Source: an uncultured Pseudobutyrivibrio sp.
GTDB lineage: Bacteria > Bacillota > Clostridia > Lachnospirales > Lachnospiraceae
DNA length: 64,000 nucleotides
Assembly (NCBI GenBank): GCA_946403965.1
Contig: CAMJBT010000007.1
Location: 397 to 64,396 of the forward strand
Reading direction: 5' to 3'
Made by a program: the position numbers and the translations under genes. Below the pieces are notes generated by a model. It saw only the letters and a list, made by a program, of their open reading frames with translations. It was not told the origin of the DNA and searched no databases. Positions 46,623-58,445 of this stretch are shown here, one piece after another. Position 1 is the stretch's first letter. Each line of letters starts with the position of its first letter.

Positions 46623-47471
46623 ATGACATCAAAAGAGAAGGTTTTAGAATTTCTTGAATCCAATAAAGATAGCTATATCTCCGGAGAAGCAATGGCCAAA
46701 GCCATTGGGCTTTCCAGAAACGCTATATGGAAAGCCATAAACGAACTTAGAAAAGCCGGATATAGCATTGATGCAGTGAGTAACAAGGGCTATATGCTAT
46801 CCCAGAAAAACGATATCCTATCTTCTGCCGGCATTTATTCTTATCTTACAAATGAAGCCAAGAGCATATTTGTAAATCAGGAAGATATGCTTCGCATTTA
46901 CGATACTACAATTTCCACTAACAGATTGGCAAAGGAACAGGCAATAGCAGGTGCAAAACATGGCACAGTTATACTTTCAAAGGAACAATCTGAGGGCCGT
47001 GGCCGACTAGACCATAGCTTTTTCTCTCCAAACGGAGGCATATATATGAGCATTATTATGACTCCAAATCACCTGCCATTTTCAGATCCAAAATCCATCA
47101 CTGCATTTACCGGTGTATCAGTCTGTGATGCTATAAACGAACTTACTGGGATTAATCCCAAAATAAAGCCTGTAAATGACCTGTTTGTTGATGGTAAAAA
47201 AATTTGTGGAATACTGGTGGAGTCTGGCGCCGAATTTGAAACCGGTCACCTTCAATGGATTGTTATTGGAATAGGAATAAATTTCGATTCAGATATTATG
47301 ACTTTCCCAGAAGAATTGAGAGAAGTGGTTGGCAGCCTATTTGCTCCCGGACAAGCCACTATTACAAAAAATCAGCTGGCAGCAACCATCATTAGCAAGC
47401 TTCTTGCCATTGATAGCTGTGTACCAGCTGACATTATTAACGAATATAATAATAGGCTCATTTCTATATAG
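46623..47471 (+). CDS. birA: BirA-like protein (HTH plus ligase core), lacking the C-terminal domain
   Basis: SGEA..KAIGLSRNAIWKAI HTH, STN, GRGR and KKICGIL motifs; start at ATG 46623 after GAGG. Confidence 0.85.
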   Translation: MTSKEKVLEFLESNKDSYISGEAMAKAIGLSRNAIWKAINELRKAGYSIDAVSNKGYMLSQKNDILSSAGIYSYLTNEAKSIFVNQEDMLRIYDTTISTNRLAKEQAIAGAKHGTVILSKEQSEGRGRLDHSFFSPNGGIYMSIIMTPNHLPFSDPKSITAFTGVSVCDAINELTGINPKIKPVNDLFVDGKKICGILVESGAEFETGHLQWIVIGIGINFDSDIMTFPEELREVVGSLFAPGQATITKNQLAATIISKLLAIDSCVPADIINEYNNRLISI

Positions 47472-47513
47472 TCTATGCTAATAAGACGTAGCCTATATGT
47501 ATGTCATTCCATA

Positions 47514-48083
47514 TTATAAAGTTGCCAATCTTTCAAGAATGGCAATACAAGCTTCCTCACCAAGCTCAGCAGAATTAAGGATTAAATCAAAATACTCTGA
47601 TGAACCCCATTTTTCTCCTGAGTGAAGCTGGAAGAATTTCTCACGCTTTTTGTCGAACTTTCTCATGACCTCATCAGCCTTTGCAGCTTCTATCTTTTCT
47701 ACAGATACAGCTCTACCCTTTCTAAACTGATCGTCAGCTGTGATAAACACCTTTAAGCACTTCTTATCCTTTAAAATAGCGCTAGCACAACGGCCAACAA
47801 ACACGCATCCTGGCTGCTCTGCGGCTTCAAGAATAATCTCCACCTCTGTGTTGAAGATTTTTTCCTCCATTGAAAGGTTTTCACCTGGTGCCTTAAAAAA
47901 TGGCTTTATAGGAGTTTGCTCATCCATTGTAGATACCTGGTCGTAAGATAGTCCCATGCGCTTACAAGTCTCCACAACCACACCTCTATCGTACAAACGA
48001 TAATTTAGGCGTTTTGCAAGCTTTTCAGCGATTTCATGTCCACCACTACCGTATTTACGTTCAATGCAAATAAAATCATACAT
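47514..48083 (-). CDS. Cytidylate kinase-like family protein
   Basis: RKYGSGGHEIA, VFVGRCA and YFDLILNS patterns. Confidence 0.85.
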   Translation of the reverse strand: MYDFICIERKYGSGGHEIAEKLAKRLNYRLYDRGVVVETCKRMGLSYDQVSTMDEQTPIKPFFKAPGENLSMEEKIFNTEVEIILEAAEQPGCVFVGRCASAILKDKKCLKVFITADDQFRKGRAVSVEKIEAAKADEVMRKFDKKREKFFQLHSGEKWGSSEYFDLILNSAELGEEACIAILERLATL

Positions 48084-48105
48084 AAAAGAGCCCCTCCTTA
48101 TTGAA

Positions 48106-48786
48106 TTATAAACTAGGTTTCAATACATCAGTTACGATTAACTTGTTATCCTTCCCTACAAATGCTATATCATAGTTGTGAAACATTACTCTGAATTCCC
48201 TTTCCTTTTTTCTATCATATGCAGCTCTAGGATCTTGTTGAAGCAGCTCCACTGCAGCCTGACGGATATTTTCTGGAAGTTTTTCAATCAATTCATCCGA
48301 AAATTCTACATCCACTTGATTTTCTTTGGAAAGTGAATCTGTAAACCCTCCGCGAGCTTCTGGATGGGCATCAGCATATGGGATATATGGCTTGATATCA
48401 TAAATTGGAGTGCCATCCAACATATCCACCCCTGAAACGTAAATTACAGGGCCCAAGTTTGAATCCTGTTCCACCTCCACAAGCTTCACCGAAGATAGAC
48501 CTATATTGTTTGGTCTAAATGGAGCTCTGGTAGCGAAGACCCCCATGTGCTTTTCTCCTCCAAGCCTTGGCGGCCTGACTGTTCCGCCTTCCAATGGCTT
48601 GTTTTTTGAAAAGCCCCAAAGCAACCACAAATAGTCGTAATCCGTGATTCCCTCGATAAATGTTGGGTTCCTGTACTCAGGTTCGAAAACTATGCGTCCT
48701 ATTTCACTAACTAATCCACTTTGTCTAGGTATACCAAATTTTTGTGTAAATCCTGTGTTTATATATGCTATCTCTTTTAATTCCAT
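48106..48786 (-). CDS. tsaA: tRNA t6A37 N6-methyltransferase (TrmO)
   Basis: KFGIPRQ, GVFATRAPFRPN.IGLS, GTPIYDIKPY and QDPR motifs. Confidence 0.92.
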   Translation of the reverse strand: MELKEIAYINTGFTQKFGIPRQSGLVSEIGRIVFEPEYRNPTFIEGITDYDYLWLLWGFSKNKPLEGGTVRPPRLGGEKHMGVFATRAPFRPNNIGLSSVKLVEVEQDSNLGPVIYVSGVDMLDGTPIYDIKPYIPYADAHPEARGGFTDSLSKENQVDVEFSDELIEKLPENIRQAAVELLQQDPRAAYDRKKEREFRVMFHNYDIAFVGKDNKLIVTDVLKPSL

Positions 48787-48806
48787 AAAATTATCACTTA
48801 TTTAAT

Positions 48807-48842
48807 AAAAATGGGTAGCACACTAAACTCATGTACTACCCA
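48807..48842 (-). terminator. Probable intrinsic terminator after apt
   Basis: tgggtag...ctaccca stem followed by a T-run. Confidence 0.6.
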
Positions 48843-48866
48843 AAAATATTGTCATACTAACTTTAT

Positions 48867-49391
48867 TTACTTGCCGTCGTAAGAAACTACGGATGCGACG
48901 TCGTATTTTGCAAGCTTCTCGCGTCCGTTGAGTCCCTTAAGCTCCATAAGGAACACAATTTTGGCAACTTCGCCACCAAGCTGCTCAACAAGCTCACAGG
49001 CTGCCTCGATTGTACCACCTGTAGCAATAAGATCATCTACGATAACAACCTTCTGTCCTGGCTTTACAGCATCCTTGTGCATTTCGATTGTAGCTGTACC
49101 ATATTCAAGATCGTATGTTTTCTCTATAGTTTCGCATGGAAGCTTGCCCTTCTTACGAATAAGCACAAATGGCTTTCCAAGTGCATACGCAAGTGGCGCA
49201 CCGAAAATAAAGCCACGGCTCTCAGCTCCTGCTATAACATCACAATCAACACCCTCAAGAAGCTTCTTCATCTCGTCGATTGCGAGCTTGAAGCCGTCTG
49301 CATCCTGAAGAATGCTTGTAACATCTCTAAACATAATACCTGGCTCTGGAAAATCCGGAATAGTTCTTATGTAGTCTTCTACTTTTTTCAT
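48867..49391 (-). CDS. apt: Adenine phosphoribosyltransferase
   Basis: PDFPEPGI.FRD, ESRGF, RKKGKLP and VDDLIATGGT motifs. Confidence 0.97.
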   Translation of the reverse strand: MKKVEDYIRTIPDFPEPGIMFRDVTSILQDADGFKLAIDEMKKLLEGVDCDVIAGAESRGFIFGAPLAYALGKPFVLIRKKGKLPCETIEKTYDLEYGTATIEMHKDAVKPGQKVVIVDDLIATGGTIEAACELVEQLGGEVAKIVFLMELKGLNGREKLAKYDVASVVSYDGK

Positions 49392-49479
49392 TTAAAACTC
49401 CTTCTAAATGTAAAGCACCATATTTTTCCATTCAGGAAGGTGCAAACAATAGTTGGATAAATAGGCATTATCCTTATTA

Positions 49480-49508
49480 ATTATATAGGTTTTATTTCAT
49501 TTTTACAA
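49480..49508 (-). promoter_or_regulatory. SigmaA promoter of apt
   Basis: TTGTAA-N17-TATAAT. Confidence 0.75.
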
Positions 49509-49537
49509 GTGGGGCTAAATACAGTTTCAAACATAGT

Positions 49538-49561
49538 AAAAATGGGGCCCCGAAGGACCCC
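49538..49561 (-). terminator. Intrinsic terminator of fla1
   Basis: GGGGUCC-UUCG-GGGCCCC-AUUUUU. Confidence 0.88.
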
Positions 49562-49609
49562 AATTTGTGGATAGTACCGTTAAAGTACCGATGCGTTTGG
49601 CCACGCTAA

Positions 49610-51115
49610 CTACTGAAGAAGTGAAAGAACACCCTGTGTTGACTGATTTGCTTGAGCGAGCATTGACTGGCCTGCCTGAGCAAGAATATTGTTCTTGCTG
49701 TATGTAACCATTTCATCAGCCATATCTGTATCACGAATTCGAGATTCAGATGCTTCTGTGTTCTCTACTACATTATCAAGATTTGCGATTGAGTGCTCGA
49801 GTCTGTTTTGTATAGCACCAAGACCTGATCTTTGAGCAGATACCTTTGCAAGGGCGTCTGCGATTGAGTCGATTGCGTAAGTTGCTGCCTTACCTGTGGC
49901 GTCACTAACGTTTAGTCCCTGGATGCCAAGTGCTGTTGCGCTCATGCATTCGATTGTTACACCAATCTTGTTTGTCATATCAGCATCAGAGCCAACATGA
50001 AGATTGAATGAAAGGTCTTTCTGGACTGTTGCTGAACCTTTTTCGATTCTGAACTCTACCTTTACAGGTGGATCTGTCTTCACATCATCTGGCAACTTAC
50101 CATTTACTTTATCAGTGTCCTGTGTTGGATCTGTATCATCGAATGTATTATCACCTATCTTTGCAGTTGGAATTTTGATGATTGAATCACATCCAATTGA
50201 TGAAGCTGCTCTAAGTTCATTTGCCATAAGCTGATATGCCTTCGCTGCTGTAATAACTGTTGCATCCTTGTCATCAACACCATCATCTGGTTCCTTCGCG
50301 TCTGCTGTGCTGAATAAAACTGCAACCTTACCATTGTACTCAATTGTTGAGCCCTGGCTTGCGAACTTGTTAAGGTGTGATGCCTTAACCTCTGATGTAT
50401 AAGCGTTAGTCTCAGTAGAAATAGTAAATGACTTACCATCAATCTTTACTACTTCACCTACTGTAAGATGAGGTTCAGCACTTTCCTCTGCAGATGTTCC
50501 TAGAACAGTTAAGGCATTTGCTAACTGGGTAGTAGGATCATCACCTCCAACACCGATTGTATACTTTGTACCACCAATTGTTACTGTGTCACCCATTGCA
50601 AGAGCATTGATGGTGAAAGTAGCTGTTGTTGTGTTCTGTGTAAGTGTGCCTGCAAGACCTGCGTCATGAGCTGCAATAACTTGTGTCTTGGTGCCGTAGT
50701 CCCCCTTGAGAAGATAGGTCTCGTTGAACTTTGTCGTTTCAGAAACTCGATCAATCTCAGTTGTAAGCTGTAAAATCTCATCCTGAATAGATGAGCGGTC
50801 ACTTTCTGAGTTTGTTCCGTTTGCTGCCTGGACTGCCAACTCATTCATTCTCTGAAGCATTGAATGTACCTCTGTAAGGGCACCTTCGGCGGTCTGTACT
50901 GCTGAGATACCATCTGATGCGTTTGTTGATGCCTGATCAAGACCTCGAATCTGCTTGCGCATTTTCTCAGAAATTGAAAGACCTGCTGCATCGTCTGCGG
51001 CTCTATTAATTCTAAAACCAGATGAAAGTTTCTCAGTAGATTTAGACTGAGCATTTGTTGTAATTCCTAACATTCTTGAAGCATTAGCTGCCTGCATATT
51101 GTGTTGTACTACCAT
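49610..51115 (-). CDS. fliC: Flagellin (fla1), 501 aa
   Basis: Conserved N-terminal (RINRAADDAAGL) and C-terminal (LGAIQNRLE, SRIRDTD) D0/D1 regions. The true start is ATG 51115 after AAGGAGG, not 51268. Confidence 0.97.
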   Translation of the reverse strand: MVVQHNMQAANASRMLGITTNAQSKSTEKLSSGFRINRAADDAAGLSISEKMRKQIRGLDQASTNASDGISAVQTAEGALTEVHSMLQRMNELAVQAANGTNSESDRSSIQDEILQLTTEIDRVSETTKFNETYLLKGDYGTKTQVIAAHDAGLAGTLTQNTTTATFTINALAMGDTVTIGGTKYTIGVGGDDPTTQLANALTVLGTSAEESAEPHLTVGEVVKIDGKSFTISTETNAYTSEVKASHLNKFASQGSTIEYNGKVAVLFSTADAKEPDDGVDDKDATVITAAKAYQLMANELRAASSIGCDSIIKIPTAKIGDNTFDDTDPTQDTDKVNGKLPDDVKTDPPVKVEFRIEKGSATVQKDLSFNLHVGSDADMTNKIGVTIECMSATALGIQGLNVSDATGKAATYAIDSIADALAKVSAQRSGLGAIQNRLEHSIANLDNVVENTEASESRIRDTDMADEMVTYSKNNILAQAGQSMLAQANQSTQGVLSLLQ

Positions 51116-51119
51116 AATT

Positions 51120-51161
51120 TCTACCTCCTTGTAGATACTCTTGTGATTCCATTCATAAGAG
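51120..51161 (-). promoter_or_regulatory. Tandem CsrA-type hairpins in the fla1 leader
   Basis: CUCUU..AUGGAA..AAGAG, then UCUAC-AAGGAG-GUAGA with the SD in the loop; same architecture as Bacillus hag. Confidence 0.8.
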
Positions 51162-51463
51162 ATGCGATGAACGCATAACATAAAATTTAAAGTTTCAATG
51201 ATTAGGAATGCTACATACTTTAGGCTGCATCCGTATCTATATAACAAGGGAGTGACCAACCTCCGCATGCTACCAAAGGAAGAAATCTCACTATTTTCTG
51301 AACTGCTTGGTCTCAGAAAATAACGAGCAGTAGTATAACAGCTTTATTAAATTGTAAAGCTACGATTCAGTAGTAACTCTTCCGCGCGATAGATGAAAAA
51401 TTACCACCTGGAAGGACAACAAAAACTTGATAAATTTAAGTTTACTGTTTCCATCTACTTTAA

Positions 51464-51490
51464 TTATCGGAATAGGGGGGAAAAACTTTA
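51464..51490 (-). promoter_or_regulatory. Sigma28 (SigD/FliA) promoter of fla1
   Basis: TAAAG-N14-TCCGATAA. Confidence 0.85.
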
Positions 51491-51501
51491 GAACAAAATA
51501 G

Positions 51502-51533
51502 AAAAAAAGAGGACCTCCCGAAGGAAGTCCCCT
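51502..51533 (-). terminator. Intrinsic terminator of fla2
   Basis: GGGGACUUCC-UUCG-GGAGGUCCUC-U7. Confidence 0.9.
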
Positions 51534-51607
51534 AATTTACTAGTATTTAAACTAGTCTGCGCGAAACGATTAACTGGATTCTAACTAATCAAAAACTAAT
51601 TGCTAGA

Positions 51608-53077
51608 TTATCCAAGGATTGATAATACGCCCTGTGTTGACTGGTTAGCCTGTGCAAGCATTGCCTGACCTGCCTGCTGAAGAATGTTATTCTTGCTGTA
51701 GTTAACCATTTCATCTGCCATGTCTGTATCACGGATACGTGATTCAGAAGCATTTGTATTCTCAACTACGTTGTCTACGTTAGCGATTGTGTGCTCTAAT
51801 CTGTTCTGGATAGCACCGAGTGAAGATCTCTGTGCAGATACCTTTGAAACAGCGTCAGCGATTGCATCGATAGCGTATGTAGCAGCTTTACCTGTAGCAT
51901 CAGCAACATTAAGTCCCTGAATACCAAGTGAAGCAGAGCTCATGTCTGTGATTGTAACGCCAATCTTGTTTGTCATATCAGCGTCAGAACCAACATGAAG
52001 GTTGAATGTAAGGTCATTCTGAACTGAAGCCTCACCCTTTGTCATTGTGAAGGTTACTTTGTTGTCCTTCATATCAGCTGGTAACTGGTTATTGTAGTCA
52101 GCCTCTTTATATGATGCACTTGTGCCACCTTCATCAATTGATCCTTTAGTTGGCGCTTTAATAACTTCATCTGCTCCAATTGAAGAAGCTGCACGAAGTT
52201 CATTTGCAATAAGTTCATAAGCCTTATCAGCTGTGATAAGTGTTGAATCCTTCTCATCAACACCATCTTTAGGACCATCTTCTTTGTTAAATAATGTTAC
52301 TGACTTACCGTTGTACTCAATTGTTGAGCCCTGGCTTGCAAAGAGATTAAGCTGTGTTGCAGCAACTTCTGATGTATCAGCATTTGTAGTTTTAGCAATA
52401 GTAAATGACTTTCCATCAATCTTAACTACTTCACCAATCTCCAAATCATCCTCAGATGTGCCAAGAACTGTAAGACCATTTGCGAGCTGCTTATCAGGAT
52501 CATCACCAGCTACACCAATTGTGTACTTTGTACCACCGATTGTGTATGTATCGCCCATTGCAAGAGCATTCATTGTAAATGTAGCTGTTGTGGTGTTCTG
52601 TGTAAGTGTTCCTGCAAGACCTGCATCATGAGCAGCGATCTTGATTGTCTTTGTACCATAATCGCCCTTAAGAAGATAGGTCTCGTTGAATTTTGTTGTC
52701 TCAGCAACACGGTCAATTTCTGTTGTAAGCTGATTAATTTCGTCCTGGATAGAAGAACGATCAGACTCACTGTTTGTTCCGTTTGCTGCCTGTACTGCAA
52801 GCTCGTTCATTCTCTGAAGCATTGAGTGAACTTCTGTTAAAGCACCTTCAGCTGTCTGCACTGCAGATACACCGTCCTGAGCATTTGTAGATGCCTGATC
52901 AAGACCTCTAATCTGCTTGCGCATCTTTTCTGAAATTGAAAGACCAGCTGCGTCATCAGCTGCACGGTTAATCTTAAAACCAGATGCTAACTTCTCTGTT
53001 GACTTAGACTGATTTCCTGCTGTGATGTTGAGCATTCTTGAAGCATTGGATGCTTGCATATTGTGTTGTACTACCAT
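51608..53077 (-). CDS. fliC: Flagellin (fla2), 489 aa
   Basis: Flagellin termini as in fla1; AAGGAGG RBS. Confidence 0.97.
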   Translation of the reverse strand: MVVQHNMQASNASRMLNITAGNQSKSTEKLASGFKINRAADDAAGLSISEKMRKQIRGLDQASTNAQDGVSAVQTAEGALTEVHSMLQRMNELAVQAANGTNSESDRSSIQDEINQLTTEIDRVAETTKFNETYLLKGDYGTKTIKIAAHDAGLAGTLTQNTTTATFTMNALAMGDTYTIGGTKYTIGVAGDDPDKQLANGLTVLGTSEDDLEIGEVVKIDGKSFTIAKTTNADTSEVAATQLNLFASQGSTIEYNGKSVTLFNKEDGPKDGVDEKDSTLITADKAYELIANELRAASSIGADEVIKAPTKGSIDEGGTSASYKEADYNNQLPADMKDNKVTFTMTKGEASVQNDLTFNLHVGSDADMTNKIGVTITDMSSASLGIQGLNVADATGKAATYAIDAIADAVSKVSAQRSSLGAIQNRLEHTIANVDNVVENTNASESRIRDTDMADEMVNYSKNNILQQAGQAMLAQANQSTQGVLSILG

Positions 53078-53082
53078 AAAAT

Positions 53083-53125
53083 TCTACCTCCTTGTAGATA
53101 CTCCCGTGGATTCCTTTCCTGGGAG
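53083..53125 (-). promoter_or_regulatory. Tandem CsrA-type hairpins in the fla2 leader
   Basis: CUCCC-AGGA-AAGGAA-UCC-ACGGGAG, then UCUAC-AAGGAG-GUAGA. Confidence 0.8.
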
Positions 53126-53174
53126 ATGTGATTCGGGTAAATGCTGTGAATCACAACTTTTTTCCCTCGTCACA

Positions 53175-53265
53175 TGTTAACAATTACTAACCGCTATCCA
53201 GTAGCTAACTGAATAACTATCTATAATCAACACAGTACTCGCGCGACATACTGCATGACTATCGC
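53175..53265 (-). ncRNA. Candidate cis-regulatory RNA (H-type pseudoknot plus P3 stem) in the fla2 leader
   Basis: GCGAUA-GUCAUG-CAGUA-UGUCGC-GCGAG-UACUG, followed by a UGUUGAU/GUUAACA stem; compensatory changes relative to the fla3 copy. Confidence 0.6.
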
Positions 53266-53499
53266 TTTATTATTTCTCGTAAATCAAGAAATCAAAACAA
53301 ACTAGTAGTAAACATAATTAGTATTTAATTGTGAATGTACAATTGATAAATGGAAATAAAAACTTGAAATTATTCATCGATCCTTAACATCCTTGTTCTG
53401 TATCGAAATAGATATTTAAATGATGTTTGTAAATCTCAGATAATGAAGTCCTTTTCATTTATCTTTGGTGTGTGCCAGGTAGATAATTTAAATCCTTAT

Positions 53500-53712
53500 C
53501 TCATCCTTGCAAATTTAATATCGGATGACTTTCTTAAAACTTAACCCCTTTTTAGAAAATTTTTTATTATTTTTTATTTCATTCTAAATGCTTAGGTCAA
53601 GCTTGATTTATGGGGGTGTTATTTTTGCCCCTCATCACCCTTGCAATCTATATATCGGAAGCTCTGTTATAAACTTAACCCCTTTTTAAAAAAATTTTAT
53701 TTTTATATCTAA
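53500..53712 (-). repeat. Direct repeat (two units 134 bp apart), each carrying a sigma28 promoter
   Basis: TTAAG-N14-TCCGATAT at 53518-53544 and 53652-53678; identical aaacttaacccctttttA core and shared ccttgcaa. Confidence 0.85.
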
Positions 53713-53740
53713 AAATATTATTTTCCCTGTCTGCACACCC

Positions 53741-53774
53741 AAAAAGGACCTCCTTTATAATGAAGGAGGCCCTT
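53741..53774 (-). terminator. Intrinsic terminator of fla3
   Basis: AAGGGCCUCCUU-N7-AAGGAGGUCCUU plus a U-run. Confidence 0.88.
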
Positions 53775-53877
53775 GAATTAAGCTTATATTTCTAGTCACG
53801 GGAAAATTGGTTAATTATTCTTGAATGTTTCATTTAAATCATTCTCAAGAATTCTACACTATTAAATTATGGTTTCT

Positions 53878-55344
53878 CTACCCCAAGATAGAAAGTACTC
53901 CCTGAGTAGACTGGTTAGCCTGAGCAAGCATAGCCTGACCTGCCTGAGCAAGAATATTGTTCTTGCTGTAGTTAACCATTTCTTCTGCCATATCTGTATC
54001 ACGGATACGTGACTCAGATGCATTTGTATTCTCAACTACGTTGTCTACGTTTGCAATTGTGTGCTCTAATCTGTTCTGAATAGCACCAAGCGAAGATCTC
54101 TGTGCAGATACCTTTGAAACAGCGTCAGCGATTGCATCGATAGCATATGTAGCAGCCTTACCTGTAGCATCAGAAACGTTAAGTCCCTTAATACCAAGAC
54201 CTGTAGAGCTCATATCTGTAATTGTAACTCCAATCTTATTTGTCATGTCAGCATCAGAACCAACATGAAGGTTAAATGTAAGGTCATTCTGAACTGTAGC
54301 TTCACCCTTTGTAAGAGAGAACTCAACAGTCTTATCTTTTACATCGGTAGGCATCTTTCCATTTGAATCAGTTGCATTAGCTGCTGCTGATGCAGTTCCA
54401 GTACCAACTTTAATTGTTCCATCTTTAACAGCTGTTGTTGCTCCAATGTTTGAAGCAGCCTTAAACTCATTCAAAATAAGATTATATGCCTTTTCCTCAG
54501 TAATAAGCTGTCGATTATTCTTATCAACACCATCACTAGGAGCCTTACCTGATGCTTCACTAAATAATGTTACAGACTTTCCATTGTACTCAATAGTAGA
54601 TCCCTGACCAGCAAATGTGCCAATCTCATCTTTCTTTACTTCTGCTGTATCAGAATTTGTTTTATCAGCAACTGTAAATGACTTACCATCAATCTTAATT
54701 ACTTCGCCATCATCAAGATTGTCTGCACCTAATACTTTAAGTGCATTTTCAAGTTGCTTTTCCTTGTTATCTCCAGAAACACCAATTGTGTACTTTGTTC
54801 CACCAATTGTATAGCTGTCGCCCATTGCCAACTGATTCATTGTAAATGTAGCCTTTGATGTATTCTGAGTAAGTGTTCCATCAAGACCTGCATCATGAGC
54901 TGCAATTTTGATAGTCTTTGTGCCATAGTCACCTTTTAATAGGTATGACTCGTTAAACTTTGTTGTCTCAGCAACACGATCGATTTCAGTTGTAAGCTGG
55001 TTAATTTCATCCTGGATAGAAGAACGATCTGACTCACTGTTTGTTCCGTTTGAAGCCTGAACTGCAAGTTCATTCATTCTCTGAAGCATTGAATGAACTT
55101 CTGTAAGAGCACCTTCAGCTGTCTGCACTGCAGAAACACCATCCTGTGCATTTGTAGAAGCCTGAGAAAGACCTCTAATCTGCTTACGCATCTTTTCTGA
55201 AATTGAAAGGCCAGCTGCATCATCTGCTGCGCGGTTAATCTTAAATCCGCTTGCCAACTTTTCAGTTGATTTTGCCTGGCTTCCAGAAGTGATGTTAAGC
55301 ATTCTTGAAGCGTTACTTGCCTGCATGTTGTGTTGTACTACCAT
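53878..55344 (-). CDS. fliC: Flagellin (fla3), 488 aa
   Basis: Flagellin termini as in fla1; AAGGAGG RBS. Confidence 0.97.
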   Translation of the reverse strand: MVVQHNMQASNASRMLNITSGSQAKSTEKLASGFKINRAADDAAGLSISEKMRKQIRGLSQASTNAQDGVSAVQTAEGALTEVHSMLQRMNELAVQASNGTNSESDRSSIQDEINQLTTEIDRVAETTKFNESYLLKGDYGTKTIKIAAHDAGLDGTLTQNTSKATFTMNQLAMGDSYTIGGTKYTIGVSGDNKEKQLENALKVLGADNLDDGEVIKIDGKSFTVADKTNSDTAEVKKDEIGTFAGQGSTIEYNGKSVTLFSEASGKAPSDGVDKNNRQLITEEKAYNLILNEFKAASNIGATTAVKDGTIKVGTGTASAAANATDSNGKMPTDVKDKTVEFSLTKGEATVQNDLTFNLHVGSDADMTNKIGVTITDMSSTGLGIKGLNVSDATGKAATYAIDAIADAVSKVSAQRSSLGAIQNRLEHTIANVDNVVENTNASESRIRDTDMAEEMVNYSKNNILAQAGQAMLAQANQSTQGVLSILG

Positions 55345-55347
55345 ATA

Positions 55348-55390
55348 TCTACCTCCTTGTAGAAAGTTTCCGAGAATCCTTTCCCGGAAA
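55348..55390 (-). promoter_or_regulatory. Tandem CsrA-type hairpins in the fla3 leader
   Basis: UUUCCGGGAA-AGGA-UUCUCGGAAA, then UCUAC-AAGGAG-GUAGA. Confidence 0.8.
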
Positions 55391-55405
55391 GTGCCAAACG
55401 CACCC

Positions 55406-55490
55406 TTGGTTAATAAATACCCCTGGCTTATGTTTTAAACATAAAGCCCTTAACCAACAGTACTCCCGTGATATACTGTCCTGTTATCAC
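55406..55490 (-). ncRNA. Candidate cis-regulatory RNA (H-type pseudoknot plus P3 stem) in the fla3 leader
   Basis: GUGAUA-ACAGGA-CAGUA-UAUCAC-GGGAG-UACUG, followed by a UUGGUUAA/UUAACCAA stem. Confidence 0.6.
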
Positions 55491-55643
55491 GTTATAAAAA
55501 ATTACCTTACAGATGCTCGCTCATTCATCTGTAACATTATAATAACATCTTTTTCTGAAATTAACAGATATTTCACTAAATGTTCATACTTTTAGGGTTA
55601 ACTTTCTTTCGAAATTCACGACAGATTTTTCCTTGCAACAACT

Positions 55644-55680
55644 AAAAAAAGCATACTCCGGAACAAATCCTAGAGTATGC
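55644..55680 (-). terminator. Intrinsic terminator after znuB
   Basis: GCAUACUC-N14-GAGUAUGC-U7. Confidence 0.8.
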
Positions 55681-55780
55681 CTCTTCTTTTAATGACTTCT
55701 CATGACCCACTTAATAAAAAAGCCCAAAAGAACCACTGTATTTACTTGTCTTTAAAAGTCACCCCTGTTCTAATCTGACT

Positions 55781-56584
55781 TTATCGATCCTTACCATATA
55801 TATATGTGGCAAAATAAATCACGCTTGCCACTATTACAATCATTGGACCTGTTGCCATATCTGTGAAGTAAGAAACAAACAAACCGCACACACCAGAGAA
55901 CACACTAAAGATAATAGAAAAGTAAGTGTACTCTCTAAAGTTCTCTGAAATATTTCTACTGCTTGCTGCTGGCAAAATCAGTAACGCATTAATAAGAAGG
56001 ATTCCAACCCACTTTATAGAAAGCATTACAAGAAGTGCAATCAGCACTGCAAAAGCATCTTCCATCACTCTAACAGAAATACTACGGCTTTTTGCAAGTG
56101 TTGCATGAATACTAATCGCTGTAAGTCTATTGATGCTGATGCACCAAAAAACCATAATCACTACAAACAAAATCACCAGCTGAATTATTTCCTTTACAGT
56201 GATAGATAAAATATCACCTACCAAGATTGCAGAATAATTGCTGAAGCTTCCTCCTCTGGAAAGAATCGCAAGGCCAAGCGCAGTAGCGCAGCTGGCAAAA
56301 ACCGAAATCAAGGTATCAGAAGAACTTAAGCCCTTTCTACTTATATAATTAAGAAGAAGTGCAAAACAGATTCCAAATATTATCATTGAGACTGTGGTAT
56401 TTGAAATCCCCATTATCACTCCTGCCGCAATTCCTGTAAGTGCTGAGTGACCAAGAGCATCGCTGAAATATGCCATACGCTTTTGGACAATCATAGTGCC
56501 TACTGTACCAAAAAGTGGAGAAATCAGAAGAATGGCTATTGTAGCCCTAATCATAAAGGTGTAACTAAACATTTCGCTAAACAT
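55781..56584 (-). CDS. znuB: Zn/Mn ABC transporter permease
   Basis: AYFSDALGHSALTG and LLINALLILPAA motifs. Confidence 0.9.
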   Translation of the reverse strand: MFSEMFSYTFMIRATIAILLISPLFGTVGTMIVQKRMAYFSDALGHSALTGIAAGVIMGISNTTVSMIIFGICFALLLNYISRKGLSSSDTLISVFASCATALGLAILSRGGSFSNYSAILVGDILSITVKEIIQLVILFVVIMVFWCISINRLTAISIHATLAKSRSISVRVMEDAFAVLIALLVMLSIKWVGILLINALLILPAASSRNISENFREYTYFSIIFSVFSGVCGLFVSYFTDMATGPMIVIVASVIYFATYIYGKDR

Positions 56585-57413
56585 TGTCAGTCACCTCCTT
56601 GCTCTTCTTTTCAGTATCTGCCCCTTCTTTATTCAAAGCTGTTGTACCCGATGAGGCACCTTTTGTGCTATCCAATTTCCCGGTAGCTCCATTTCCGAAA
56701 ACAGATTTGAAAGCATCTGTTTCATATACAAGCCTTGGACGTCCGGCTGCTGTAACAGTCTTGTCTATAAGAATTACATTATCTGCATATTTGTATACAT
56801 AATCCAAGTCATGACTCACAAGAATGATTGCCAAATCGTGAGTCTCCTTTAAGTATTTCATCTTCTCATAGAAAGCATCCATACCATTTTTATCAATTCC
56901 AGAAACAGGCTCATCTAATAATAGAAGGTTTGGTGTATCATGCACCGCCATAGCTAAAAGCACTCTCTGAAGCTGTCCGCCGGAAAGTGTACCTACTGGC
57001 TGATCTATAAGCTCTGCTACATCAAACTCTGCCAAAGCTTCTCTTACATGCTCATGTTCCTTTTTGCTATTAAAAAGGATTGGTAGCTTTCCTGTAAATG
57101 ACTGGAACAAATCATACACAGAAAGAGGTGTTGTCCTGTCGATATTAACGGTTTGTGGCACATACCCTATCTTTAGACTAGGCATGTTGTTATTCATTTT
57201 ATTTTTGAATTGAATCTCGCCAGTATATGGCACTTCACCAAGAATAGCCCTGACAAGCGTAGACTTGCCCGCTCCATTTCTACCGACGATAGCTGTCATT
57301 TGTCCACAATGCACATGCAAATTGATATTGCTCAATACCTGCTGGTCACCAAACGCCACACCCAAGTTATTAAATTTTATGCAGTGAAAACCACATGGAA
57401 TTATTTTTTTCAT
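56577..57413 (-). CDS. znuC: Zn/Mn ABC transporter ATPase
   Basis: GRNGAGKST, LSGGQ, LDEP and VSHDL motifs. Confidence 0.9.
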   Translation of the reverse strand: MKKIIPCGFHCIKFNNLGVAFGDQQVLSNINLHVHCGQMTAIVGRNGAGKSTLVRAILGEVPYTGEIQFKNKMNNNMPSLKIGYVPQTVNIDRTTPLSVYDLFQSFTGKLPILFNSKKEHEHVREALAEFDVAELIDQPVGTLSGGQLQRVLLAMAVHDTPNLLLLDEPVSGIDKNGMDAFYEKMKYLKETHDLAIILVSHDLDYVYKYADNVILIDKTVTAAGRPRLVYETDAFKSVFGNGATGKLDSTKGASSGTTALNKEGADTEKKSKEVTDNV

Positions 57414-57416
57414 GTT

Positions 57417-58445
57417 TTATAAAGCTTCTTTTATTTTCTTATAATTTTGATTCTGTATAGTAATATATGAAGACGCATCATAAGAACCATGTACTAATGT
57501 CTCAAGATACACCACCTTGGCATCAGTCTGTTCTTCGATGAGCTTTCCCATAGCATTGCCATAGTCATATTCGGCAAAGACAATTTTAATATCATTATCC
57601 TGAATAGCCTGAATAAATTCACTAACCTCTCCAGCACTAACCTGACGCTCCTCATCAAGATCCATTGAAACGGCGACATTTGCTCCTAGAGACTGTGCTG
57701 TATACGAAAAAGCCTCATGAAGAACTGCAACATTAGAGCCTGACAATGTCTTTTCAAGCCCCTGTTTGTCAATTTCAGCATTAAGATTATTAGTATATGA
57801 AAGATAATTATTTGAAATAGGAGTTTCTTCCCTATTTAAATTTTCTCCCATAAGCTCATTTGCAATAGCAGCCACCTGCATTTCAAATAATCTTTCATCC
57901 ATCCAGATGTGGCTATTAGCACCATGTTCATGATGATGTTCGTGAGACTCTTCATGAGCTTCTTCAGAAACGCTTTCATCTTCATGATGCTCTTCCTCAT
58001 GAGCCTCTTCATCTTCTTCCTCTTCTTCAATAAGAAGATCAGATGCCTCACCTAATGAATGCTCGATATATTCATAGGTATCGATGATTTTAAGATTCGG
58101 ATAAGCCTCCATTACATCCTCAAGGTATCCTTCCATTCCCCCACCATTGACTACAAGAATATCTGCCTTTGAAAGCTTCTTCATATCCTCTGTTGTCAGC
58201 GTGTAATCATGAAGACATCCAGTAGTTGGTTGGGAAAGATTTTCCACGGTATATCCTTCTGTAGAACCAACCACATTTAATGTAGCAATATATACAGGAT
58301 TGCAGCTGGTCATAATAAGAATATTATCATCATCTTCTGTATTTTGTTTATTATTATTTTTTACATAAAAAAAAGTGCCGAGACTGCTCACCACCGTGAT
58401 GGAGATTAGCAGTAGCAGCACAAAAATATATTTATTTTTTTTCAT
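57417..58445 (-). CDS. znuA: Zn ABC transporter substrate-binding protein with His/Glu-rich loop
   Basis: CLHDY, SHIW and HEAFSY ligand motifs; EEEHHE..HEHHHEH loop; start at ATG 58445; N-terminal TM helix without a lipobox Cys. Confidence 0.88.
   Translation of the reverse strand: MKKNKYIFVLLLLISITVVSSLGTFFYVKNNNKQNTEDDDNILIMTSCNPVYIATLNVVGSTEGYTVENLSQPTTGCLHDYTLTTEDMKKLSKADILVVNGGGMEGYLEDVMEAYPNLKIIDTYEYIEHSLGEASDLLIEEEEEDEEAHEEEHHEDESVSEEAHEESHEHHHEHGANSHIWMDERLFEMQVAAIANELMGENLNREETPISNNYLSYTNNLNAEIDKQGLEKTLSGSNVAVLHEAFSYTAQSLGANVAVSMDLDEERQVSAGEVSEFIQAIQDNDIKIVFAEYDYGNAMGKLIEEQTDAKVVYLETLVHGSYDASSYITIQNQNYKKIKEAL

Follow-up and report, generated by a model that had tools for sequence, protein, structure and literature searches.

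Putative contact between a leader hairpin loop and the 3′ UTR of the same flagellin mRNA in Pseudobutyrivibrio, supported by compensatory base changes

Pairing in cis between 5′ and 3′ UTRs is known for only a handful of bacterial mRNAs, that is, RNAIII/hld (for a review see PMC7821165), icaR (PMC3868564) and hbs (PMC5737220), and its applicability to other genes remains open according to the 2021 review (PMC7821165). In hbs mRNA of Bacillus subtilis, a 14-nt contact between the two UTRs shields the 5′ UTR from cleavage by RNase Y (PMC5737220; reviewed in PMC7821165), and the hbs 3′ UTR, like several other characterised functional 3′ UTRs, is not conserved in close relatives (PMC7821165). In icaR mRNA of Staphylococcus aureus, a UCCCC tail serves as an anti-Shine-Dalgarno sequence, which blocks ribosome binding and makes a substrate for RNase III (PMC3868564). 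A flagellin 3′ UTR is known to act in Vibrio cholerae, where FlaX, a ProQ-associated sRNA processed by RNase E from the flaA 3′ UTR, pairs with flaB mRNA (PMC11879080). The leaders of flagellin mRNAs (hag, fliC or flaA) are controlled by the CsrA-FliW system, with the protein acting on GGA sites (PMC6529632, PMC8523840, PMC4894983). Our literature search found no paper on pairing between the 5′ and 3′ UTRs of a flagellin mRNA or on flagellin regulation in Pseudobutyrivibrio.

The window, which is the whole 64,000-nt stretch of DNA analysed herein (an uncultured rumen Pseudobutyrivibrio sp., assembly GCA_946403965.1), has three flagellin genes in tandem on its minus strand, fla3 (53878..55344), fla2 (51608..53077) and fla1 (49610..51115), each followed by an intrinsic-terminator-like hairpin; all the features below are on the same strand. 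The fla2 open reading frame encodes 489 amino acids with the Pfam domains Flagellin_N (3.5e-45) and Flagellin_C (1.3e-27), and ends with the stop codon TAA at 51610..51608. The listed fla1 open reading frame (552 aa) reaches 51268, with a start 51 codons too early; the true ATG was placed at 51115, because Flagellin_N begins at residue 54 and the Shine-Dalgarno (SD) sequence AAGGAGG precedes this ATG. Upstream of fla2, a proximal sigma-D/sigma-28-like promoter, TAAG-N16-CCGATAT, was read from the sequence at 53518..53545, and a second one at about 53651..53678; this tandem arrangement, GGGGTTAAGTTT-N11/12-CCGATAT, is a duplication common to many relatives. Given the position of the proximal promoter-like sequence, from which the transcription start was placed, the fla2 leader would be about 430 nt or longer.

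Within this leader, a hairpin at 53254..53232, with the stem GCAGUA/UACUGU and the 11-nt loop UGUCGCGCGAG (53248..53238), was predicted in both the MFE and the centroid folds, 155 nt upstream of AUG and about 260 nt from the predicted transcript start. The corresponding pattern CAGTAT-N7-GAGTACTG has two occurrences in the whole genome of 3.44 Mb, and each lies in a flagellin leader. At the other end of the gene, the 3′-UTR segment UUCGCGCAGAC (51565..51555) lies 43-53 nt past the stop codon and 22 nt ahead of the terminator stem, and is unpaired in the predicted MFE fold of the fla2 3′ UTR alone. Directly 3′ of the helix strand is a small predicted hairpin, ACUAGU-UUAAAU-ACUAGU (51556..51539), followed by the intrinsic terminator (51533..51502; stem 51533..51508) with an 11-bp GC-rich stem, a UUCG loop and a U tract. 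Both segments of the putative helix thus have the predicted sigma-D promoter upstream and the predicted terminator downstream.

The original prediction, made from the sequence of this stretch, was that these two segments form a duplex of 10 pairs with one G-U and one bulged A, and this was borne out by the sequence and by RNAduplex. Aligned antiparallel, UUCGCGCAGAC and the leader strand GUCGCGCGAG (53247..53238) form 9 Watson-Crick pairs and one terminal G-U, with A51558 bulged. The duplex energy of the two oligonucleotides is -13.6 kcal/mol and falls to -15.0 kcal/mol when one flanking base is included, the latter being the best of all 12x12-nt segment pairs between the 74-nt pre-terminator 3′ UTR and the leader of 433 nt; the second-best independent duplex reaches -12.4 kcal/mol. 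Opening of the sites costs 3.4 and 4.3 kcal/mol, and the net energy left is -5.9 for fla2 and -9.4 for fla3. After dinucleotide shuffling, -15.0 kcal/mol was reached in 3 of 150 trials with the 3′ UTR shuffled and in 1 of 100 with both UTRs shuffled (z about -2.5). Since 1-2% of shuffles reach the same energy, the fla2 match by itself is only nominally significant, and this weakness matters especially in view of the many candidate pairs from which the original reader could choose.

A sharper test is possible because the loop is defined independently by conservation. Counting both strands, the 3.44-Mb genome contains TCGCGCNG 44 times, and therefore only about 5e-4 occurrences are expected in a 74-nt 3′ UTR. 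The full 11-mer and the 10-mer occur once each in the same genome. TCGCGC is rare as well, with 6 matches in the 64 kb when both strands are counted, 4 of which are at three flagellin-UTR sites.

The gene fla3 carries a homologous pair of different sequence. Its leader hairpin (55457..55479), with the stem ACAGUA/UACUGU, exposes the loop UAUCACGGGAG, while its 3′ UTR contains UUCCCGUGAC (53795..53804), which pairs with UCACGGGAG of the loop by 8 Watson-Crick pairs and one G-U (-14.6 kcal/mol). The fla3-type tail motif is anchored on GACUAG and is without the bulged A. UUCCCGUGAC does not pair with the corresponding partner in the fla2 loop: the fla3 loop gains -14.6 kcal/mol with its own tail versus -4.5 with the fla2 tail, and for the fla2 loop the values are -14.8 kcal/mol with the cognate tail versus -10.4 with the fla3 tail. 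The two loop-tail pairs are orthogonal within this genome. Because fla3 possesses such a homologous pair of different sequence, each flagellin mRNA would recognise its own tail.

Conservation was examined in flagellin loci from genomes of the genus, from metagenomes and from contigs encoding close homologues of Fla3, and the UTRs of more than 100 genes were extracted. By blastn, the leader was matched in 19 of 24 sampled genomes of the same genus and in none of 16 genomes of other families, and the hairpin falls in one conserved leader block (query 254-302). The fla2-type genes share a recurrent hairpin with the loop U(G/A)(U/C)CGCGCGAG, located together with the loops of the other members 88-236 nt upstream of AUG, and a recurrent tail module, UUUCGCGCA-GACUAG-hairpin-terminator, around which the UTR sequence varies. 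The tail motif sits just 5′ of GACUAG in 3′ UTRs that are otherwise dissimilar, at 26 to 133 nt from the stop codon in fla2-type genes; its position is fixed relative to the terminator rather than to the stop codon. In some fla2-type genes, at L038 and L045 (G023 and G041), stop codon and tail motif are separated by an inserted conserved stretch of about 90 nt (UUCGUGAUUUUUAAAGCUUGACUU...CACCGCAGGUGAUUUU...). The small 3′-UTR hairpin is also kept in fla2-type genes, with the same stem made from a different sequence (GUCGU/ACGGC) at locus L028.

All genes with both the hairpin and the GACUAG-anchored motif keep 6-10 bp, with energies of -11.7 to -14.6 kcal/mol. Four helix sequences were found, each matching within its own gene: leader GCGCGA(G) with tail (U)UCGCGC for the fla2 type; UCACGGGA with UCCCGUGA for fla3 of the window; CACGCGA with UCGCGUG for fla3 of G017; and CGCACGA with UCGUGCG for fla3 of G011, G007, G049 and loci L284-L286. 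In G010 and G023, 10-nt-loop variants (UAUGCGCGA[A/G]) are paired by 8 bp without a bulge. At locus L283, a G-U takes the place of the G-C of fla2 and of the A-U of fla3 in the window and in G017, as would be expected of an intermediate between the G-C and A-U states.

Co-variation, which had been named as the decisive test, turned out positive across 30 distinct flagellin genes. In a 30-row alignment, hand-made around GACUAG with rows selected by a motif-guided pattern, 99.5% of the 208 cells of the 7-bp core are paired (30 distinct rows). Double changes affect three pairs of this core (GC/AU twice, CG/GC once) in 9 cells; all the rows come from one genus, and these changes correspond to about 3-4 independent evolutionary events. 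In the alignment, N stands for a single indel on each side, introduced since MAFFT on the concatenated segments misplaced the fla3 tails by one column, leaving the single-base gap unopened. None of 500 shuffles reached the paired percentage, the number of double-change cells or the covariation score of the core, and only 2-61% of cells are paired when the partner is slid by 1-3 columns. The hairpin stem that presents the loop is likewise 99.4% paired (30 distinct genes), with compensatory double changes in 4 of its 6 pairs; among its cells that are not Watson-Crick, 15 are G-U versus 1 other non-pair. This pattern supports selection of the fla2 5′-UTR/3′-UTR complementarity at the RNA level.

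The alignment also narrows the helix. What is conserved is the 7-bp core between leader C53245-A53239 and 3′-UTR U51564-C51559 plus G51557, so that of the 10 pairs originally proposed the outer 3 bp do not hold across the 30 rows. Beyond the bulge, the U-A pair (loop position 3 with the tail A) is mismatched in 12 of 30 rows and the G-C pair (loop position 2 with the tail C) in 10 of 30, while 10 rows of the 30 do not form the terminal G-U. These outermost pairs beyond the bulge overlap the conserved 3′-UTR hairpin at 51556..51539.

The same data bear on two explanations that involve no RNA pairing. First, both UTRs might carry a rare self-complementary motif of the CGCGCG type, for instance for protein binding or methylation, the complementarity being a coincidence or by-product. 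The 1-2% of shuffles that beat the window duplex would allow for it, and the core UCGCGCGA is a palindrome, for which direct and inverted repeats are indistinguishable in the case of fla2. A generic screen of flagellin genes for 7-nt Watson-Crick matches between any leader hairpin loop and the 3′ UTR of the same gene was also no better than its control: 39 of 79 genes of the genus gave a match versus 38 of 79 with the reversed 3′ UTR, and 24 of 69 versus 14 of 69 in the metagenome set; this screen is powerless because the UTRs are AT-rich. However, the non-palindromic helices of the fla3 type keep their complementarity across three different double substitutions, whereas a shared protein-binding motif would keep its sequence and not a changing complementarity, and we regard a mere by-product as highly improbable. 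For fla2 alone, the palindrome may still reflect loop-loop dimerisation or a shared motif. The HIV-1 RNA makes such a kissing-loop contact through a palindromic GCGCGC dimerisation loop, and the fla2 loop resembles it as a GC-rich 6-8-nt sequence in a 9-11-nt hairpin loop; unlike in the HIV-1 contact, the partner of the fla2 loop is a single strand beside a hairpin. Self-dimerisation is not the selected property, because the fla3 types are not palindromic.

Second, the segments could be DNA inverted repeats at which a site-specific recombinase inverts the flagellin gene. Flagellar phase variation by inversion is known for Salmonella Hin, and short inverted repeats do flank the gene. The repeats are, however, only 7-10 bp long and bulged, and the flanks of the core are unrelated, leaving no arms for recombinase binding. 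The G-U pair of L283 would be a mismatch in DNA, and the G-U cells in the hairpin stem fit an RNA of the sense strand. At all of about 40 loci examined the orientation is the same, and the neighbours (an ABC-3 transporter, a phosphoribosyltransferase and TrmO) include no recombinase gene. DNA inversion is thus barely credible, and the initial preference for RNA pairing over a recombination site, then based on the bulge and the wobble, is upheld by the co-variation, by L283, by the unrelated flanks and by the loci without inversion or recombinase.

If the complementarity acts as RNA, its partner has to be considered. The original prediction also allowed for pairing of the fla2 tail in trans with the fla1 leader segment AUCGCGCGGA (51390..51381), a possible trans or read-through partner, and at -12.4 kcal/mol this is energetically possible. 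In its strongest form, the fla1 leader downstream would be the true partner, reached by read-through or in trans and coupling successive flagellins: GCGCGGAA and UUUCGCGC form 8 bp including one G-U, and the two segments are only about 170 nt apart. Yet about half of the fla1-type leaders (G017, G006, G002, G013, G011, G007 and G049) have lost this segment by deletion, all in species that keep the fla2 tail motif, including G017 as the closest relative. Presence of the tail motif and of the leader segment is largely uncorrelated across genomes, the fla1-type gene is about 2-3 kb away in G012 and G016, and the fla3 tail, which matches the fla3 leader only, would be left unexplained. We therefore consider the fla1 leader quite improbable as the true partner; trans pairing stands as an energetic possibility in this genome and not as a general feature of fla1-type leaders. 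The fla1-type UTRs show conserved elements of their own. Their leader (window 51280..51460; L278, L280 and L290) belongs to a different conserved family, e.g. GGAGGUUGGUCACUCCCUUGUUAUAUAGAUAC ... GCCUAAAGUAUGU, without any Rfam match. The fla1-type 3′ UTR (window 49540..49609) is nearly invariant across fla1-type genes of the genus (L027-L057), with the order UUAGCGUGGCCAAACGCA, GUACU-variable hairpin-GUACUAUCCACAAAUUGGGGUCC and terminator, and is a separate, strongly conserved element.

Another possibility is that the 3′ module of about 70 nt, consisting of the single-stranded UUUCGCGC seed, the small hairpin and the terminator, is released as an sRNA that targets flagellin leaders in trans, namely its own leader (as feedback) or those of the paralogues, in a manner resembling FlaX. 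A seed located 5′ of a terminator hairpin resembles the architecture of 3′-UTR-derived sRNAs, FlaX sets a precedent (PMC11879080), and besides the fla1 leader (-12.4 kcal/mol with the fla2 tail) the fla2 loop could pair with other tails. The same co-variation would be expected, so that sequence alone cannot separate trans from cis action. Against this, neither an evident nor a conserved promoter or processing site lies upstream of the motif, where the flanks vary between species; the best partner is always the own leader, and the fla1 leader target is not conserved. A weak structural similarity to the Listeria sRNA sbrA was noted: in an Rfam scan of 47000..58000 at E <= 1, the single match was to sbrA (RF01489) at 29.4 bits and E 0.0089 (about 0.009), far under the gathering score of 45. 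This match covers only the small hairpin and the terminator, and identity with sbrA was rejected. Taken together, we judge action as a trans sRNA unlikely.

The loop-tail contact within one mRNA, our preferred reading, was also examined with regard to exceptions and to its distribution. The hairpin is present without the tail motif in G045, where the gene is shortened, and in G014, where it is broken, while one gene of G048 has the tail motif without the hairpin. A 'mid'-type flagellin (gene 2 of L034-L036; G015, G024 and G022) carries the leader hairpin ACAG-GUGGCGCGCGU-CUGU, and no complementary motif was found in its own 3′ UTR in G015, G022 and G024; a partner for its loop could be the tail of the fla2-type gene upstream. 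In L287, an ENA metagenome scaffold, a tandem flagellin array has 120-nt spacers with the hairpin (loop CGCCGCGCGAG), and these spacers contain neither terminator nor tail motif. Different leaders, lacking the hairpin, precede the remaining flagellin paralogues of this genome (contigs C29, C45 and C24) as well as about 20 divergent flagellin loci of the genus. Outside the genus, a covariance model of the core leader, searched in 150 sampled genera elsewhere in the family, brought up no comparable element; one weak match (G107, E 8.6e-4) was rejected as not being a flagellin leader of this type. A degenerate hairpin pattern searched in 400 family genomes and the contig collection returned almost solely chance matches. 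In a metagenome scan with the Fla3 protein, mostly flagellins of human-gut Lachnospiraceae with about 58% identity and without this leader were recovered; only L183-L187 belong to Pseudobutyrivibrio, and no further helix variant was found there. The leader element thus appears to be confined to Pseudobutyrivibrio so far.

We assign a probability of about 0.6 to the reading that the fla2 leader loop base-pairs with its own 3′ UTR, i.e., that it makes a contact of the hbs/icaR kind in a paralogue-specific hairpin-loop form. The 11-nt loop of the hairpin at 53254..53232 would pair with the single-stranded segment 51564..51557 between stop codon and terminator, thereby joining the two untranslated ends of a flagellin mRNA of about 2 kb. 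Such a contact presumably forms in cis in vivo, and by analogy with hbs of B. subtilis it would probably mark and stabilise complete transcripts.

The leader may at the same time switch its fold, with the hairpin loop either bound to the tail or else unbound or engaged in a local pseudoknot. Mutual exclusion of the helix with the leader pseudoknot had been proposed from the start, and the overlap with its stem S1 is real and makes exclusion plausible in this strain, but the pseudoknot does not appear to be a conserved feature of the genus. In the window, S1 consists of 6-7 bp, GCGAUA with the loop UGUCGC in fla2 and CGUGAUA/UAUCACG in fla3; outside the window it is mostly reduced to a 4-5-nt GAUA match and is absent from G011-type fla3 leaders, and shuffled sequences match S1 equally well in 4-99% of trials.

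Re-folding of the leader may influence translation under the control of CsrA-FliW. This link is proposed because the leader contains many GGA hairpins and because fliW and csrA are present in the same genome, where they are adjacent on contig C101. The leaders at 53078..53510 and 55345..55600 carry several GGA motifs in hairpin loops, as is typical of CsrA sites, including CUCCC-AGGAAAGGAAUCCA-GGGAG and the SD hairpin UCUAC-AAGGAGG-UAGA. In a more elaborate scheme, which we put forward as speculation and consider doubtful, the helix would be a private 'address' that is possible only on the complete mRNA and toggles the leader between pseudoknot and closed loop, gating both CsrA-FliW-controlled translation and decay. 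If true, this would amount to an RNA-level check of completeness and to a dosage control specific for each flagellin paralogue and orthogonal between paralogues.

The significance of the contact would lie in its compensatory evolution genus-wide within a bacterial mRNA that ranks among the most highly expressed and most tightly regulated, and in a possible extra layer on CsrA-FliW flagellin homeostasis in Clostridia. The orthogonal versions in paralogues make a clean genetic test feasible. As a matter of approach, a weak signal in a single genome, here reached by 1-2% of shuffles, can turn out to reflect a real element after comparison of homologous positions.

Among the described systems, hbs shows what is proposed for fla2, namely cis pairing of the 5′ UTR with a 3′-UTR segment that immediately precedes the terminator, and both are very abundant mRNAs of Firmicutes. 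The 5′ partner in fla2 is, however, an internal hairpin loop rather than a 5′-proximal cleavage region, and the fla2 helix is shorter (7-10 bp), exists in paralogue-specific versions and is conserved genus-wide. Like icaR, in which the pairing controls the fate of the mRNA, fla2 has a 3′-UTR motif complementary to the 5′ UTR of the same mRNA. Its target differs in being not the SD sequence but a site at least 88 nt upstream of AUG in every member, and an anti-SD tail of the icaR type was rejected, UUCGCGCAGAC being not complementary to AAGGAGG. In FlaX, too, a flagellin 3′ UTR supplies a base-pairing function directed against a flagellin mRNA, and V. cholerae likewise has multiple flagellins; FlaX acts in trans on a paralogue in a proteobacterium, whereas the best and co-varying target of the fla2 tail is its own leader. 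With the known CsrA-FliW targets the fla2 leader has in common its GGA hairpin loops, one of them over the SD sequence, and the presence of fliW-csrA in the genome; for those leaders no 3′-UTR partner has been described (PMC6529632, PMC8523840, PMC4894983), while the fla2 leader appears to possess one.
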